In this document: positions 4,009-34,123 of the stretch, one piece after another
Layout of the letters: each line of letters starts with the position of its first letter
How positions within the stretch are numbered: the stretch's first letter is position 1
NCBI GenBank assembly: GCA_963772365.1
Contig: CAVYXA010000001.1
Span: 352,001-416,000 of the forward strand
Length of the DNA: 64,000 bases
Direction of reading: 5' to 3'
Source: an uncultured Verrucomicrobiae bacterium
Lineage (GTDB): Bacteria > Verrucomicrobiota > Verrucomicrobiia > Chthoniobacterales > UBA10450
Notes under the pieces: model-generated
What the model was told of the DNA's origin: nothing
Databases searched by the model: none
What the model saw: the letters and a program-made list of their open reading frames with translations, nothing else
Program-made: the position numbers and the translations under genes

Positions 4009-4048
<40 letters not shown>

Positions 4049-12622: not shown

Positions 12623-12695
<73 letters not shown>

Positions 12696-13381
12696 CTGTT
12701 TATTTTCGATTTTCGATCGGGGATTTGCGATTCTCGATCTTGTGCAATCACTGGCACCCCGGCTGGAACAACGCGAGGAATCGGTTGAGTTGCGCGACTG
12801 GCCACGGGTTTGAAGTCACCGGCAGTGTATCCATTTCTCGCTCCCTGGTGGATATCGTCGGCCATTGCTTATTGGTCAGGACAGCCCCGGGGGTGCGGGG
12901 AGCTCCCACGAAAGCTTTCAGGGGATTGCCGACAGCGCTCGCTTTTACCTGGGCGAGGTCGGGCGCGAGCGAAGCAAATCCTCGCGAGACATCGAGTCCA
13001 GTAGGTTTTCAGCTATGACGCCGAGCGAGTGAGGGAGAATTCAGCGTCCATTTTGGGGCGAATCCTTCGCGGAATGATCTTTGCTCTATGTTGGATCGCC
13101 GCCGAGCCAGGCGCCGCCGTTTCTTGTGTTATCAGGCCAGAACGATGCGGCCAAACTTTACCGGGTTGTGAAGAAGCTGTGAAAAAGTTGACTTTTTACG
13201 TGAGAAAGTTTTGACATCGAGGCCCAATATCTGGAATAATAGCGCGTGTTGAAAAAATTCATCCCACAGAAACCGATGTCCGGCGATCAGCGAAGGATCG
13301 TCGAACTCGGCCACCGATGATAGCAACCGATTCGCGTTTCGCGAACAACCAAGAACATCCACAACCGATTACCAAAAAACT

Positions 13382-23337: not shown

Positions 23338-24781
23338 AACTTCATCCGACGGACGTCCTTCTGCGCCCGGATAATAAGCGCGTAGTCGTGCGCCCCTTTA
23401 TCTCAACCGATCCTGCACGGGTAGAACATATCATCGCCCGCGCTCTTACGCTCAGCGAGTCGGAAACCGACAAACAGCTCGCGTTAGTTCGAGCGGATTT
23501 TGGCGAGAGACATGTCGACCTTGATAAAAGTTGGCTACGGCACTTTGAAAAGGTGCGAGCACAGGTTCCCAACGGTAAAACGATTTCCAAAGCACGCCGG
23601 CTATTCATTGGTGCTCTTTTTTCCGGCGAGTACGCACTCGAATCGACCGCATTATTTAATCCCTCGATTATTCCGCACCCCGACCAGACTGGTTTAAGGC
23701 AGGGTGAACTCCGTTTTATCTTAGCCTCCGCTCGACCGGGGAAGGTCATATCTCATCGATCCAGTTTCGAGCCGGTGTGGTCCGTCGTGATCACTCAGTC
23801 CGGATCGAGAAAACGACGCCTTTCGTAACACTGCCGGAGCTTAATCCCAATCCGGCCTACCATAAACGCACCTTCCTGGACAAACTGAGCGAGATGGGGC
23901 TGGAGAACGATTGGGCCGCGTCAGTCATGGGAAGATTAGGAAAAACTTTTCTGTTTGACGAACTGGTCGAGTCCATTCAACAAGCAGCACCGGACGAGGC
24001 TTCCTCACAAGCGCGTGACGTGCAGCGAACTTTGGAATGCATGCACTGGCTCGCGGAATCCAACTACGAAATTCATTTCAAATCTTCCTCACAAATATCG
24101 GAACGCATTATCTTTCCGGTCTCGTCTAACGAGAGCAATGGGATTGAGGACGCCCGTTTTGTTCGATTTGTCGAAGACGATGGTAGCGTAATCTACTACG
24201 CGACCTACACAGCTTACAACGGCCGAGTCATTCTCCCGCAGCTGATCGAGACCGCGGATTTCCTGCACTTCCGTGTCCTGACCCTTAACGGACAGGCGGT
24301 GCAAAACAAAGGGATGGCGCTCTTTCCCAGACGCATAAACGGGTATTACGCTATGCTTTCGCGACAGGACGATGAGAATCTCTTCCTCGCCTTTTCCGAC
24401 AACCCGCATTTTTGGAGTGACCCAGAGCTACTACTAGACCCTCGCCAGCCGTGGGAGTTCGTAAAGCTGGGCAACTGTGGTTCACCAATTGAAACCGAAG
24501 CTGGCTGGTTGGTTCTCACTCACGGCGTCGGTCCAATGCGGAAGTATTGCATCGGAGCCATCTTGCTTGACCTGCACGATCCCGCCAAAATCATTGGACG
24601 ACTCAAAGAGCCGCTCTTAAGACCGGAAGGCAGTCAAAGGGAAGGCTACGTGCCAAATGTGGTTTATTCCTGTGGTTCCCTCGTCCACAACGGGCAACTG
24701 ATGCTGCCTTATGGCATCAGCGATACAGATTCTGGCATTGTCAGAGTAGAGCTAAATGAGCTTTTGGCTGGCCTTATCTAA
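23334..24781 (+). CDS. GH130-family glycosidase/phosphorylase, one frameshift
   Basis: ALFNPSI, NGIEDARF, NKGMALFP, GNCGSP, EGYVPNVVYSCG. Confidence 0.85.
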
Positions 24782-24912
24782 GAGGAGCGCTCTTCCAAAT
24801 ACCGCTTCTTACTGATCTATTCGTTCCCGCAATCCGCAGTCGTGTCATTCGACTTTAACCGTAAAATCCTCGAAACGGCTTTTGTCGGAAGAAGCTGGAG
24901 TCGAGCCAGTTA

Positions 24913-24987
24913 TGGCTCCAGAGGTAGGATTCGAACCTACGACCAATCGGTTAATCCCGACTGTGTCGGGACTCTAGCACTGAGCTA
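24913..24987 (-). pseudogene. tRNA-Asn pseudo-copy with hairpin substitution
   Basis: 24913-24954 is identical to the tRNA-Asn 3' part; tcccgactgtgtcggga replaces cagccgaccg; D-arm remnant present; 5' acceptor strand absent. Confidence 0.85.
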
Positions 24988-25241
24988 GGTTTATATCTGA
25001 GCAACTCCTTTCGGATTCTACGGGCAGATTTCCATGATTTGATTTCGCGTTCGCGACGCATCGCGCTGGACCTGTCGGGATAATCTTCGACCCAAGCCAA
25101 AGTCCAGGGCCCGTTCTTACGAGTAAATTTGCCCAGGATCCTATCCGTTCGATTGTGGCTTAAGATTCTTTGGGGGACGTCATCGGAATGGCCGATGTAG
25201 AATCTGCCGACTGGATTTTGGAGAATGTATACCGCAAACAT
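24951..25241 (-). CDS. small GIY-YIG nuclease family protein (96 aa)
   Basis: AVYILQ...FYIGHS..V.QR...HN...FT...GPW...A..RE.EIK; starts 8 nt after the tRNA-Asn CCA. Confidence 0.9.
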   Translation of the reverse strand: MFAVYILQNPVGRFYIGHSDDVPQRILSHNRTDRILGKFTRKNGPWTLAWVEDYPDRSSAMRREREIKSWKSARRIRKELLRYKPSSVLESRHSRD

Positions 25242-25249
25242 GAAAAATT

Positions 25250-25324
25250 TGGCTCCAGAGGTAGGATTCGAACCTACGACCAATCGGTTAACAGCCGACC
25301 GCTCTACCACTGAGCTACTCTGGA
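25250..25324 (-). tRNA. tRNA-Asn (GTT)
   Basis: TCCAGAGTAGCTCAGTGGTAGAGCGGTCGGCTGTTAACCGATTGGTCGTAGGTTCGAATCCTACCTCTGGAGCCA. Confidence 0.95.
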
Positions 25325-25377
25325 TCGCTGATTGAGATCGGTCGTATATTTGTCCAGCGTTTCTCTCCAAGCAACTG

Positions 25378-25429
25378 CCAATCGGTTAATCCCGACTGCA
25401 TCGGGACTCTACCACTGAGCTACTCTGGA
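25378..25429 (-). pseudogene. 5' portion of tRNA-Asn with hairpin substitution
   Basis: Acceptor 5' strand, D-arm, TCCCGATGCAGTCGGGA and TTAACCGATTGG; T-arm missing. Confidence 0.85.
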
Positions 25430-25536
25430 TCGTGTTTCGCCCGATGAGCGGGCTGAATCTTGCGCAGAGGAGTGCGCGCAGCAAGTGATTTGGTTGCGGG
25501 GGGCGGATTTGAACCGCCGATCCGGCAGCTGCCGGA

Positions 25537-25800
25537 TTATGAGCGGCGAACCCTAGGAAAACCCGTAATTGCGTAAAAGCCCGCTCCTCTGCCTTGTCGT
25601 TTCAATCGGTTCTCCATCTTCCTAGCGTCGCTCAGCAACATCGGCTCGCTCTGCCAGACCATCTTCCAGGGACCGCGTCCTTTGGTCCAGCGGGATTCGC
25701 CGGAATTGTGTTGGCGCGTTCTTCTTTCAACATCATCGGTAACTCCAACATAAAATCTGCCCGTGTCATTTTGAAGGACGTAGACCCGGTAAGTTACCAA
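25537..25800 (-). CDS. small GIY-YIG nuclease (87 aa, divergent C-terminus)
   Basis: YRVYVLQ...FYVGVT.DV.RR...HN...WTK.RGPW...AR..E..LK. Confidence 0.85.
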   Translation of the reverse strand: MVTYRVYVLQNDTGRFYVGVTDDVERRTRQHNSGESRWTKGRGPWKMVWQSEPMLLSDARKMENRLKRQGRGAGFYAITGFPRVRRS

Positions 25801-25860
25801 AGCGCCAGAAAATTTGGTTGCGGGGGGCGGATTTGAACCGCCGATCCGGCAGCTGCCGGA

Positions 25861-26121
25861 TTATGAGCCATCCCGATGCAGACCTGTCATCGCGTAGAAG
25901 CCCGAGCCTCTCCCTTGCCGCTTCAGCCGGTTCTCCATTTTCCTTGCTTCGCCTAGAGTTATCGGCTCGCTCTGCCAGACCATCTTCCAGGGACCGCGTC
26001 CTTTGGTCCAGCGGGATTCGCCGGAATTGTGTTGGCGCGTTCTTCTTTCAACATCATCGGTAACTCCAACATAAAATCTGCCCGTGTCATTTTGAAGGAC
26101 GTAGACCCGGTAAGTTACCAA
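25861..26121 (-). CDS. small GIY-YIG nuclease (86 aa)
   Basis: Same GIY-YIG motifs; TTG start; array unit. Confidence 0.85.
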   Translation of the reverse strand: MVTYRVYVLQNDTGRFYVGVTDDVERRTRQHNSGESRWTKGRGPWKMVWQSEPITLGEARKMENRLKRQGRGSGFYAMTGLHRDGS

Positions 26122-26181
26122 AGCGCCAGAAAATTTGGTTGCGGGGGGCGGATTTGAACCGCCGATCCGGCAGCTGCCGGA

Positions 26182-26442
26182 TTATGAGCCATCCCGATGC
26201 AGACCTGTCATCGCGTAGAAGCCCGAGCCTCTCCCTTGCCGCTTCAGCCGGTTCTCCATTTTCCTTGCTTCGCCTAGAGTTATCGGCTCGCTCTGCCAGA
26301 CCATCTTCCAGGGACCGCGTCCTTTGGTCCAGCGGGATTCGCCGGAATTGTGTTGGCGCGTTCTTCTTTCAACATCATCGGTAACTCCAACATAAAATCT
26401 GCCCGTGTCATTTTGAAGGACGTAGACCCGGTAAGTTACCAA
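26182..26442 (-). CDS. small GIY-YIG nuclease (86 aa)
   Basis: Identical protein; array unit. Confidence 0.85.
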   Translation of the reverse strand: MVTYRVYVLQNDTGRFYVGVTDDVERRTRQHNSGESRWTKGRGPWKMVWQSEPITLGEARKMENRLKRQGRGSGFYAMTGLHRDGS

Positions 26443-26502
26443 AGCGCCAGAAAATTTGGTTGCGGGGGGCGGATTTGAACCGCCGATCCGGCAGCTGCCG
26501 GA

Positions 26503-26763
26503 TTATGAGCCATCCCGATGCAGACCTGTCATCGCGTAGAAGCCCGAGCCTCTCCCTTGCCGCTTCAGCCGGTTCTCCATTTTCCTTGCTTCGCCTAGAG
26601 TTATCGGCTCGCTCTGCCAGACCATCTTCCAGGGACCGCGTCCTTTGGTCCAGCGGGATTCGCCGGAATTGTGTTGGCGCGTTCTTCTTTCAACATCATC
26701 GGTAACTCCAACATAAAATCTGCCCGTGTCATTTTGAAGGACGTAGACCCGGTAAGTTACCAA
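26503..26763 (-). CDS. small GIY-YIG nuclease (86 aa)
   Basis: Identical protein; array unit. Confidence 0.85.
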   Translation of the reverse strand: MVTYRVYVLQNDTGRFYVGVTDDVERRTRQHNSGESRWTKGRGPWKMVWQSEPITLGEARKMENRLKRQGRGSGFYAMTGLHRDGS

Positions 26764-26823
26764 AGCGCCAGAAAATTTGGTTGCGGGGGGCGGATTTGAA
26801 CCGCCGATCCAGCAGCTGCCGGA

Positions 26824-27084
26824 TTATGAGCCATCCCGATGCAGACCTGTCATCGCGTAGAAGCCCGAGCCTCTCCCTTGCCGCTTCAGCCGGTTCTCCA
26901 TTTTCCTTGCTTCGCCTAGAGTTATCGGCTCGCTCTGCCAGACCATCTTCCAGGGACCGCGTCCTTTGGTCCAGCGGGATTCGCCGGAATTGTGTTGGCG
27001 CGTTCTTCTTTCAACATCATCGGTAACTCCAACATAAAATCTGCCCGTGTCATTTTGAAGGACGTAGACCCGGTAAGTTACCAA
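26824..27084 (-). CDS. small GIY-YIG nuclease (86 aa)
   Basis: Identical protein; starts 14 nt after the tRNA-fMet CCA. Confidence 0.85.
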   Translation of the reverse strand: MVTYRVYVLQNDTGRFYVGVTDDVERRTRQHNSGESRWTKGRGPWKMVWQSEPITLGEARKMENRLKRQGRGSGFYAMTGLHRDGS

Positions 27085-27098
27085 AGCGCCAGAAAATT

Positions 27099-27175
<77 letters not shown>

Positions 27176-27258
27176 GGGTCAAGATTGCAGAATTCACCGC
27201 GAAATCAACCATCCACAGGCTTCGAGATTAGGTTGAGAGATTTTTCTCTTCGCTCAGA

Positions 27259-28185
27259 ATGACAACTATGGGAGATAGAATCCTGGTTGGCACCGCGAGC
27301 TGGTCCGATCCGGGATTTGTTCAGCATTGGTATCCGAAACGGATGCCTGCGGGTGAGCGCCTTGGGTGGTACGCGCAGCATTTCGAGCTGGTCGAAGTGA
27401 ATTCGACGTTCTATTCCGTGCCCGAGCCGCGTTTGGTCGAACGCTGGTGCCGGAGTACTCCGGATCCATTCACTTTCGACGTAAAGCTGCACCAACTGCT
27501 TTCCCGTCACTCCACGGCTTCGAAATTGTTGCCGCCAAACCTGCAGAAATGCGCCGAAATCGATTCAAAAGGAAAAGCAATACTGACGCCTGAACTGGAA
27601 GAGGCAATGATCAACGACTTTTTGCCTTCGCTGTCGATCTTTCGAAGCTCGGGAAAGTTGGGCGCACTTCTTTTGCAGCTCTCCCCCGCGTTTTCTCCAC
27701 GCCAAAACAAGTTGGTCGAACTTGAGTCGATCATTGAGAAGCTGCGCGGTTACGAGCTCGCGATAGAATTTCGCAATCGCAATTGGGCGATCGGAGATCA
27801 ATTAGGATCGACCATTGAATTCCTGCGGGATCGGAACGTGGCCTTTGTGAATGTCGATGCTCCAAAGTCCGACCATTTCACGGTCCTGCCATCCGACCTT
27901 GATGAAGTGACAAACCGCAGCATTGCGTATTTGCGCCTGCATGGCCGCAATGCCCGGGCTTACGTTACGGGCAGGACCGTGGCCGCGCGGTTTAATTATG
28001 ATTACGGCGATGAGGAAATTGGCGAGATCGCCGAGCGAACCAAATGCCTTGCGAAAAATGCGGCAACGGTCCACGTCGTGTTCAATAACAACGCGCTCGA
28101 TTACGCCCCGCGCGCTGCGGCTCGTTTGCGCAAAGCGCTCGGACAGATCGTGCCGACGATCCCGGAAACGGCGGAGTTATTTTGA
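27259..28185 (+). CDS. DUF72 domain protein
   Basis: VGTASWS, VEVNSTFY, EFRN, YLRLHGRN, VFNN. Confidence 0.9.
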   Translation: MTTMGDRILVGTASWSDPGFVQHWYPKRMPAGERLGWYAQHFELVEVNSTFYSVPEPRLVERWCRSTPDPFTFDVKLHQLLSRHSTASKLLPPNLQKCAEIDSKGKAILTPELEEAMINDFLPSLSIFRSSGKLGALLLQLSPAFSPRQNKLVELESIIEKLRGYELAIEFRNRNWAIGDQLGSTIEFLRDRNVAFVNVDAPKSDHFTVLPSDLDEVTNRSIAYLRLHGRNARAYVTGRTVAARFNYDYGDEEIGEIAERTKCLAKNAATVHVVFNNNALDYAPRAAARLRKALGQIVPTIPETAELF

Positions 28186-34045: not shown

Positions 34046-34123
34046 GCTGTAGCGTGCGCTCTCCTCAGCGCAGAACTCGCTCGGCAATGTCGAGGATCCG
34101 CTGAGGACAGCGGACACTACAGC
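34046..34123. repeat. GTAG-type REP doublet (inverted pair)
   Basis: gctgtagcgtgcgctctcctcagcg ... cgctgaggacagcggacactacagc; second copy at ~41553-41633. Confidence 0.7.

Follow-up and report, generated by a model that had tools for sequence, protein, structure and literature searches.

The stretch of DNA described here (the window, 64,000 nucleotides of contig CAVYXA010000001.1, positions 352,001 to 416,000, from an uncultured Verrucomicrobiae bacterium) contains small stand-alone GIY-YIG nuclease genes beside partial copies of tRNA genes, into which short GC-rich hairpins are built. One such cassette lies 3' of tRNA-Asn, and five tandem units lie 3' of the initiator tRNA-Met (tRNA-fMet). 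Coordinates follow the numbering of the window, and every feature of this fMet/Asn locus is on the minus strand, along which the order is tRNA-fMet, five units of 321 bp, a 61-nt spacer, a partial tRNA-Asn, a second spacer, tRNA-Asn, a GIY-YIG open reading frame (ORF) and a tRNA-Asn remnant (Table 1).

The cassettes of the window

Each 321-bp unit is composed of an ORF for a GIY-YIG protein of 86-87 amino acids (aa), the last 8-9 nt of an anticodon stem-loop (..GGCTCATAA), a 16-nt palindrome and a copy of the T arm and acceptor 3' strand, and the TAA inside the anticodon-loop remnant serves as the stop codon of the ORF. The T-arm and acceptor copy matches tRNA-fMet at 30/30 nt (blastn) and is repeated at 25815-25844, 26136-26165, 26457-26486 and 26778-26807. 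Three of the five units are identical, the tRNA-proximal unit 1 deviates by one hairpin mismatch, and unit 5, the one farthest from tRNA-fMet, encodes a protein 90% identical to those of the other units and is the oldest of the array. In the Asn cassette the 96-aa ORF runs through a copy of the D arm (24972-24989) and the hairpin TCCCGACACAGTCGGGA and ends at the TAA of the tRNA-Asn anticodon-loop remnant; in the upstream fragment of the same tRNA, the hairpin TCCCGATGCAGTCGGGA is placed between nt 1-24 and nt 35-46.

Read on the plus strand, the Asn hairpins are TCCCGACTGTGTCGGGA (24955-24971) and TCCCGACTGCATCGGGA (25390-25406), each with TTAA directly before it, and they replace 10 nt of the intact gene (sense cggtcggctg, tRNA nt 25-34). 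The fMet palindrome TCCGGCAGCTGCCGGA occupies 25521-25536 and recurs at 25845, 26166 and 26487, and a copy with one mismatch lies at 26808-26823. The next plus-strand letters after 25521-25536 are TTATG, so that on the minus strand CATAA stands directly before TCC; the fMet palindrome replaces 8 nt (sense cctgaagg, nt 39-46). These sequences, positions and replacements are as a first-pass annotation of this DNA had given them. The TAA beside the hairpins corresponds to nt 36-38 of the anticodon loop (U36 A37 A38) in both tRNA-Asn and tRNA-fMet. Folded as single-stranded DNA, these segments have the hairpin as their minimum-energy structure (z -1.7 to -3.5 against shuffles), and a scan for TAA-TCC(N)GGA returned 8 perfect hairpins in the whole genome (3.35 Mb, both strands), 6 of them at this locus; the signature exceeds chance.

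That annotation had also noticed half of an Asn hairpin within four fMet units, and indeed the 11-mer TCCCGATGCAG is found both in the upstream Asn hairpin and in the four young units of the fMet array (25872-25882 and +321, +642 and +963), where it lies within the coding 3' end (..TGLHRDGS, then stop). The homologous unit of a relative (L040 in genome G238) encodes ..TGLRRDGS and stop without the 11-mer. A match by chance is unlikely (about 1e-4 by a rough count), and local conversion between neighbouring hairpins is a possible origin.

Two relatives, one of them of the same genus (G001) and the other G002, have the order DUF72, tRNA-fMet, 64-nt spacer, tRNA-Asn, with no cassette. The 61-nt spacer of the window is homologous to that 64-nt spacer and connects the last fMet remnant with the upstream Asn fragment. 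Since the spacer survives between the remnants and the sites are empty in relatives, both tRNA genes have been extended or split by inserted material. Other members of the family carry related cassettes at one or other of the two tRNA genes, and a solo upstream Asn fragment with its hairpin, without a nuclease gene, is present in two genomes (G009 and G017) and, in decayed form, in a third (G023).

The ORFs of the window encode proteins of 86, 87 and 96 aa, whose sole strong Pfam match is GIY-YIG (PF01541; E 2e-12 and 6e-12 for the fMet units, 7e-15 for the Asn protein), with a weak overlapping match to T5orf172 in the fMet units (E about 1e-4). Pfam searches found no second domain and no DNA-binding domain in cassette proteins of 79-100 aa, and NCBIfam gave no match above any cut-off.

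Table 1. Features of the fMet/Asn locus in window coordinates; the last row lists copies of two dispersed hairpin families in contig coordinates.
Feature	Position	Strand	Evidence
Functional initiator tRNA-Met, C1xA72 mismatch, first array element	27099..27175	-	ARAGORN; Rfam tRNA 63 bits
Unit 1 GIY-YIG ORF, 86 aa, stop TAA = nt 36-38 of anticodon-loop remnant	26824..27084	-	ORF list; PF01541 E 2e-12 (identical unit-4 protein)
Unit 1 hairpin, one mismatch, plus strand TCCAGCAGCTGCCGGA	26808..26823	.	sequence
Unit 2 GIY-YIG ORF, protein identical to unit 1	26503..26763	-	ORF list, protein comparison
Unit 2 16-nt palindrome TCCGGCAGCTGCCGGA	26487..26502	.	sequence, genome scan
Unit 3 GIY-YIG ORF	26182..26442	-	ORF list, protein comparison
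Unit 3 palindrome	26166..26181	.	sequence, genome scan
Unit 4 GIY-YIG ORF, 3' end contains 11-mer TCCCGATGCAG (plus strand 25872-25882)	25861..26121	-	PF01541 match
Unit 4 palindrome	25845..25860	.	sequence, genome scan
Unit 5 GIY-YIG ORF, 87 aa	25537..25800	-	ORF list, Pfam
Unit 5 palindrome TCCGGCAGCTGCCGGA, in place of tRNA nt 39-46, directly after ..GCTCATAA	25521..25536	.	sequence, scan, folding
Last fMet remnant: T arm and acceptor 3' strand, contiguous with original intergenic spacer	25491..25520	-	blastn; empty loci L013, L014
Original fMet-Asn spacer, homologous to 64-nt spacer of cassette-free relatives	25430..25490	-	comparison with empty loci
Upstream partial tRNA-Asn: nt 1-24, hairpin (plus strand 25390-25406, one T.G pair), nt 35-46	25378..25429	-	sequence, blastn
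Probable second copy of tRNA-Asn upstream spacer, within cassette	25325..25377	-	comparison with L015, L016
Functional tRNA-Asn(GUU)	25250..25324	-	ARAGORN, Rfam
Asn-cassette GIY-YIG ORF, 96 aa	24951..25241	-	PF01541 E 7e-15
Hairpin TCCCGAC-tgt-GTCGGGA (plus strand), in place of tRNA-Asn nt 25-34, downstream remnant	24955..24971	.	sequence, scan, folding
Displaced tRNA-Asn nt 35-76, 42/42 identical to functional gene	24913..24954	-	blastn
Hairpin copies of GTCATG family and of third dispersed family (TCCsGC..GsGGGA)	C1:532680, 835265, 871249, 1033992, 1108713, 1707628, 1708186; C3:155917 and others		

Two familiar kinds of insertion at tRNA genes were considered and ruled out. A tRNA-integrating island, with att duplication by a tyrosine integrase, is excluded because the cassettes contain no integrase and the duplicated part carries the hairpin substitution, and a group I intron in the anticodon loop because an Rfam search of 24700-27400 (E up to 1) matches nothing but the two intact tRNAs. 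Elsewhere in the window, a 39-nt exact copy of nt 1-39 of another tRNA-Met(CAU) is located at 4010-4048, upstream of the intact gene (12623-12696), 8.6 kb away; it ends right after the anticodon-loop CATAA, with no hairpin following, and may be the boundary of an integrated island with a crossover site in the anticodon loop.

Hairpin designs, their conservation and the nuclease tree

A profile built from an alignment of nine of these proteins and searched against 301 genomes of the order matched 138 of them (a tally that takes in two genomes flagged as unpublished), including 35 of the 39 genomes of the family. The gene is directly 3' of tRNA-fMet or tRNA-Asn in 26 of the best 30 loci, in most loci it begins 0-20 nt past the tRNA 3' end, and tandem arrays of two or three units are found in at least 10 other loci. 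The cassette design is common in this bacterial order. The best 30 loci and 40 further regions together gave 87 distinct cassette instances, which were assigned to five designs by regular expressions; 20 of the 87 fall in no class and are outside the hairpin counts, being decayed or one-mismatch hairpins (unit 1 of the window among them), contig ends, second units without a remnant, or members of a clade away from tRNAs.

Design A, the 3' design (27 instances, at fMet and Asn), has the form ..TAA·TCCsss-loop-sssGGA·(T/C)CG, where the raised dots mark the edges of the hairpin, and replaces nt 39-46, while design B, the 5' design (8 instances, Asn), has the form ..(T/C)(A/T)GAG·TCCCGAn-loop-nTCGGGA·TTAA.. 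and replaces nt 25-34. Design C (24 instances, Lys and non-initiator Met) is ..GAGCAG·CCCCGAA..TTCGGGG·TTGG.. and replaces the whole arm, design D (4 instances, Pro) is GTCGCC..GGCGAC, and design E (4 instances, fMet) is (G)CCCCGCC..GGCGGGG(C), in place of the T loop. Designs C, D and E have different stems and no TAA. The signature of a TAA followed by a TCC hairpin, which the first-pass annotation had proposed as shared, thus stands for designs A and B and is not general: the TAA comes from the tRNA itself, and the hairpins of three other nuclease clades have other positions and lack it. In the Asn and Lys cassettes, direct repeats of a short tRNA block, a hairpin and another short tRNA block bracket a spare spacer and tRNA, and remnants are present on both sides in 11 of 19 Lys/Met-type loci.

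The genome of the window itself contains further examples. A third cassette, at tRNA-Lys(UUU) (L033, C6:1-700), consists of an upstream 5' fragment, the working tRNA, an ORF for an 82-aa GIY-YIG protein and a downstream remnant; in both tRNA-Lys remnants the whole anticodon arm is swapped for CCCCGAA(A/C)GCTTTCGGGG, with no TAA. A solo tRNA-Gln remnant upstream of tRNA-Gln(UUG) (L034, C5:314318-314353) carries the same 18-nt hairpin, so that in the Lys and Gln remnants alike the entire anticodon arm is replaced by CCCCGAAAGCTTTCGGGG, and a full-length pseudo-tRNA-Val downstream of tRNA-Val(CAC) (L035, C3:636990-637060) has GTCGCCGCGGCGAC instead of its anticodon arm; neither the Gln remnant nor the pseudo-tRNA-Val has an adjoining nuclease gene. 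Across the sample and this genome, then, CCCCGAA..TTCGGGG occurs on Lys, non-initiator Met and Gln, and GTCGCC..GGCGAC on Pro and Val.

The recurrence of one hairpin in different tRNAs bears on whether the palindromes could be a non-functional by-product, filled in during break repair at a fragile tRNA site by fold-back synthesis or from opened hairpin ends. There are features one might ascribe to such an origin, as the right arm of the Asn hairpin (GTCGG) is the 5' strand of the anticodon stem and the fMet hairpin retains the CC..GG ends of the 8-mer it replaced. Yet an identical 18-nt hairpin recurs in this genome in Lys and Gln remnants, other genera have it in Lys and Met remnants, and the same stems are kept across genera while the loops drift, which makes a repair by-product very improbable. 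Formation of the palindrome by fold-back from the tRNA's own sequence is ruled out by the identical hairpins in different tRNAs.

The conservation of the hairpins is strict. In 26 of 26 distinct design-A sequences the arrangement is GGCTNNTAA·TCCsss-loop-sssGGA·(T/C)CG, with the hairpin beginning immediately after the TAA, and all 156 cells of the six core pairs are paired. Double-sided G-C to C-G switches affect two of seven pairs (19 cells) and account for the three stem variants TCCGGC, TCCCGC and TCCGCC; one-sided changes are absent. The T-C-C, the closing C-G, the G-G-A and the C that follows the stem never vary, and the 2-4-nt loops are free to differ. None of 500 shuffles reached the observed pairing or covariation. 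In the 10 distinct sequences of design B (from which L055, at a contig end, was omitted) pairing is 100%: six pairs never change, and at the seventh double changes occur three times and one sequence, the upstream copy of the window, has U.G. Compensatory conservation and a fixed position relative to TAA, which the first-pass annotation had made its claim depend on, are therefore both seen in design A.

Such covariation fits pairing in RNA equally well, and the hairpin could act on the nuclease mRNA, stabilising its 3' end or marking it for processing, or could stop the remnant from folding like a tRNA. The 3'-design hairpin does begin right after the stop codon, and the short distance of 0-20 nt between tRNA and ORF in most loci suggests co-transcription. 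However, not one of the 156 core cells of design A holds a G.T (in RNA, G.U) pair, so that pairing at the level of DNA fits better, and the outer stem is invariant in sequence. Upstream remnants bear the hairpin with no preceding ORF (25390-25406 in the window, and 11 of 19 Lys/Met-type loci), the hairpin of the Asn design lies inside the ORF, no run of T follows the hairpins, Rfam gives no match, and dispersed copies stand in many contexts. A role in RNA is thus quite unlikely in our judgement.

In 25 of 25 occupied loci (fMet 18/18, Asn 7/7) the anticodon arm of the working tRNA is unchanged, being the same as in empty loci. The contiguous tRNA-derived block 5' of the hairpin is most often 9 nt long (12 of these 25 loci); it is longer, at 10-16 nt, in 8 loci and shorter in the others, with 7-8 nt in four and 3 nt in one. 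In 16 of the 25 the remnant T arm equals that of the local tRNA over 30 nt, although T stems vary between genomes, which points to local duplication or to continuing gene conversion.

The intact arm is also where the idea of an immunity scar can be weighed, according to which a homing enzyme acting on double-stranded DNA targets the intact anticodon arm and the hairpin replaces that target in the displaced copy, preventing re-cutting. Enzymes of the SegB type have DNA-binding modules and cut the double-stranded DNA of the naive allele. In the tRNA cluster of T-even phages, tandem or segmental amplification is reported to be linked to the free-standing GIY-YIG gene SegB (PMC13096335), and the present locus resembles that cluster in having a small selfish GIY-YIG gene among tRNA genes. 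Also in keeping with homing, presence among close relatives is patchy, with clean, precise empty sites (G001 and G002 lack all cassettes at this locus), and it is invariably part of the anticodon arm or of the T arm that has been replaced. A homing gene would, however, destroy its own site in the host allele, whereas only the displaced tRNA copy is altered here, in all 25 loci; with the working arm the same as in cassette-free relatives, a cassette-bearing locus would stay cleavable. Nor does a scar require conserved sequence, yet TCC and GGA are invariant and the stems change by compensation only. One hairpin recurs in the remnants of different tRNAs, similar hairpins lie away from tRNAs, and, unlike SegB-type enzymes, the proteins are bare catalytic domains, with an intact tRNA target and a conserved hairpin as part of the unit. 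We regard the scar as unlikely, and the first-pass view of the hairpin as an immunity mark, by which the copy is no longer a target, is weakened on the same ground.

A tree of 81 nuclease proteins (89 columns, from a quick search, in which only the branches given here with a value are trusted) relates the designs to the proteins. Design A at fMet forms one clade (97), with design E nested inside it (96); design C is one clade (97) in which Lys and Met hosts are mixed, design B another (95) and design D another (100). The design-A members at Asn form two clades (99 and 96) on the opposite side of the tree, beside design D and beside a clade of six genes that lie away from tRNAs and are flanked by their own hairpin repeats. 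On this tree the design labels need 14 changes, against a shuffled mean of 45 (none of 200 shuffles as low), and the stem variants of the 26 design-A rows need two, against a shuffled mean of 11.9 and a minimum of 9; as relatives share labels, these counts show co-inheritance and not co-evolution. The hairpin type goes with the nuclease clade, and the hairpin therefore belongs to the element and not to the tRNA. In the window, the Asn (design B) and fMet (design A) nucleases are only 30-36% identical, and their hairpins stem from two different nuclease lineages, which runs counter to the earlier notion of one element placed in opposite orientations. Orientation is unreadable because the sequence is palindromic; the real difference is which side of the anticodon loop is replaced.

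Dispersed hairpins and related systems

Related hairpins are dispersed through the genome in the manner of REP repeats. The family CTGTAGnG·TCCGCTG-N3-4-CAGCGGA has 21 loci, 19 of them with CTGTAGnG directly 5' (for example window 34097-34114, C1:386097), and this flank imitates the GGTAGAG·TCC junction between D arm and hairpin in design B, that of the Asn cassette. A second family, GTCATG·TCCGCCACGGCGGA·TTCGTCCTGTGGCG (GTCATG·TCCGCC..GGCGGA·TTCG), has at least 8 copies, and a third, GTCATTCTGA·TCCsGC..GsGGGA·GAAGAATC, has 4; both of these resemble the published NTS repeat of Neisseria (GTCAT, a TCC hairpin, then TC). The motif CCCCGAA-N4-TTCGGGG occurs at 13 loci, four of which are tRNA remnants or tRNA ends. 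In the first megabase there are 22 perfect TCC-SSS..SSS-GGA hairpins where Markov-1 simulations give 8-11, roughly a doubling, which favours the REP-like logic of the first-pass annotation.

Some other features of the same genome may be recorded alongside. Hairpins of the type CCCCGAAAGC(G/T)TTCGGGG stand directly 3' of tRNA-Gly(GCC) (L037, C1:275816-275843) and tRNA-Ala(CGC) (C3:409208-409252); they are of the same make as the Lys/Gln remnant hairpin, and the tRNA-Ala has a GTCGCC..GGCGAC hairpin as well. An ARAGORN call of 'tRNA-???', assigned an anticodon of 4 nt, lies at C5:80873-80964 (L036), with no GIY-YIG gene adjoining. The tRNA-like gene is complete and of class II, its anticodon arm being a 7-bp stem with a GAAA cap, and it may represent a pseudo-tRNA or encode a tRNA-like RNA. 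Two copies of nt 1-40 of tRNA-Thr(UGU) (C5:1430-1469 and C5:43495-43534), each followed by the same sequence of about 80 nt, look like the ends of an integrative element or an assembly repeat common with contig C4.

The closest functional parallel is offered by the Ssn nucleases. The SsnA protein of Neisseria meningitidis, 94 aa long and made up of a single GIY-YIG domain, binds the hairpin repeat NTS (CGTCATTCCCGCGMAVGCGGGAATCYRG) on one strand only and exclusively in single-stranded DNA (ssDNA) (Chenal et al. 2025, PMC11893778). The oligonucleotide lengths given in that paper place the cut 3 nt 5' of the 28-nt NTS, that is, 9 nt 5' of TCC. For binding, the C right after the palindrome is the most important position, the loop is dispensable, and the stem is needed for its sequence and not for its pairing alone (PMC11893778). 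According to the same text, most Ssn homologues found across phyla have SRM hairpins of their own on their flanks, quoted as 20-50 nt long, and the authors liken the arrangement to an insertion sequence, drawing the comparison with IS200 and REP in their Discussion.

The cassettes resemble Ssn in having a single-domain GIY-YIG gene of about 90 aa beside, and often between, copies of a GC-rich hairpin: the hairpin is 3' of every unit of the window and also 5' of the Asn cassette, which is SRM-like flanking. They resemble NTS and SRM in the design-A core, TCCCGC..GCGGGA followed by TC, with a free loop, an invariant outer stem and an oriented, conserved 5' flank, and they share with Ssn and its SRM the related, dispersed, REP-like copies in the genome. 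They differ from Ssn in that the hairpin is built into partial tRNA copies beside a working tRNA. The word 'tRNA' is absent from the main text of PMC11893778, and in its supplements (12 of 14 files) it occurs only within gene descriptions.

A search for the canonical NTS pattern gave at least 129 stretches in many phyla, of which a single locus (L158) has a GIY-YIG ORF detectable by profile. That ORF starts 3 nt after a canonical NTS, and the Tyr-Tyr-Glu spacing of its product is that of the residues mutated in the Ssn paper. Two Neisseria genomes reached from these stretches yielded only a YhbQ-like protein of 91-92 aa and UvrC. The genome of the window also holds a gene for a 107-aa GIY-YIG protein away from any tRNA (C3:612853-613176), 46% identical to the relatives' clade of non-tRNA genes and similar in sequence to the L158 protein; it has GTCATTCC..GGAATC-like inverted repeats on both sides, the classical layout of SRM, gene and SRM.

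IS200/IS605 elements and REP/RAYT systems are likewise similar in combining a nuclease with terminal or subterminal ssDNA hairpins, a short fixed adjoining sequence and dispersed REP-like hairpins. Unlike IS200/IS605, the cassettes have a hydrolytic GIY-YIG domain only, and tRNA sequence as flanks; no HUH (Y1) transposase of the TnpA kind is encoded in the 321-bp unit, which contains the GIY-YIG ORF alone, so that strand transfer would fall to host recombination. The first-pass annotation had seen in the hairpin a cis-acting end with the logic of REP or IS200, and this idea has gained ground from the compensatory pairing, the drifting loops, the clade-specific hairpin type, the dispersed REP-like copies and the NTS/SRM-like core.

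In protein sequence, the best solved-structure matches are to stand-alone Slx1-like/UPF0213 proteins (PDB 1ZG2 and 1YWL), which share the minimal GIY-YIG domain without auxiliary domains; a single fMet-type protein matches one of them, BH0048, at 5.3e-9. A 2006 survey groups both structures under the bacterial Slx1-like proteins (Dunin-Horkawicz et al., PMC1564403) and, as far as its available text goes, draws no link between that family and tRNA genes or hairpins.

A proposed selfish cassette and its possible meaning

Taken with the parallels above, each hairpin may well be the cis-acting recognition element of the adjoining single-domain GIY-YIG nuclease, acting as the SRM and NTS hairpins do for Ssn, a reading that we hold with middling confidence. 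The observed anatomy, empty sites, hairpin conservation and covariation, clade specificity and tandem arrays would be joined by it as follows. The unit would be a minimal selfish cassette, a nuclease ORF and then a tRNA remnant with its anticodon arm partly swapped for a hairpin, directly behind a working tRNA; the Asn cassette would also bring a spare spacer and tRNA and so leave a second, upstream remnant. The TAA would be retained because the block of about 9 nt 5' of the hairpin (GGCTNNTAA) belongs to the conserved site, and it would double as the stop of the ORF. When the locus becomes single-stranded, during replication, transcription or DNA uptake, the hairpin would extrude, and the nuclease would bind it sequence-specifically and nick a few nt to its 5' side, inside or at the edge of the anticodon-loop block; a cut in the style of Ssn is predicted to fall at or near the edge of the tRNA-derived block. 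Recombination repair between the tRNA gene and the remnants would then amplify units in tandem, to five here, and we speculate that the cassette is occasionally copied into an empty tRNA gene, with the conserved tRNA sequence as homology arms, and so moves between genomes.

Several points weigh against this recognition model. At 15-18 nt the tRNA hairpins are shorter than the 20-50 nt quoted for SRM hairpins, and the published SRM pattern has 18 sites in 3.35 Mb, which is the chance level (2 matches in the first 600 kb, against 0-5 in simulations), none of them at the tRNA-remnant hairpins. The invariant C and the 9-nt block are also positions of the tRNA, and their conservation could result from gene conversion by the neighbouring gene; the coincidence of 9 nt with the Ssn cut site is soft, as 8 of 25 loci have a block of 10-16 nt. 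Two separate protein lineages carry the 3' design, which requires either shared ancestry or convergence, and the model gives no account of insertion by a hydrolytic nuclease or of how the hairpin remnant first formed. The nuclease profile (A1) matches UPF0213 BH0048 at 6.9e-16, EF2693 at 5.2e-11 and Slx1 at about 1e-7, whereas the NTS-adjacent protein of L158, our proxy for SsnA, matches BH0048 at only 0.007 and is only 31-38% identical to the proteins of the window. By sequence the proteins look better described as relatives of the stand-alone Slx1-like/UPF0213 proteins, and membership in Ssn (cd10448) would be putative. On the evidence at hand the element would nevertheless work like the pair of Ssn and SRM.

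We found no description, in the literature searched, of GIY-YIG/hairpin cassettes built into tRNA genes. Ssn nucleases were reportedly characterised only in 2025, and stand-alone bacterial Slx1-like/UPF0213 nucleases, although very common, have to our knowledge no known role. Tentatively, then, the cassettes might represent an undescribed and widespread class of selfish elements of about 320 bp in tRNA genes, in which a bare Slx1-like GIY-YIG domain recognises its own ssDNA hairpin and nicks the anticodon-loop block, and host recombination through tRNA homology amplifies and copies the unit.

If this is true, a gene of about 260 bp would persist and spread by tRNA homology alone. Such elements would account for scrambled tRNA loci, pseudo-tRNAs without an anticodon and tandem arrays, all of which confuse annotation, and they would suggest a common origin for the hairpins of tRNA remnants and REP repeats of the NTS/dRS3 type. 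For these enzymes they would also supply a definite substrate open to testing, its strand and cut position already predicted, as well as new pairs of sequence-specific ssDNA nuclease and site as tools. Above all, the large orphan family of UPF0213/Slx1-like proteins would gain a selfish function.

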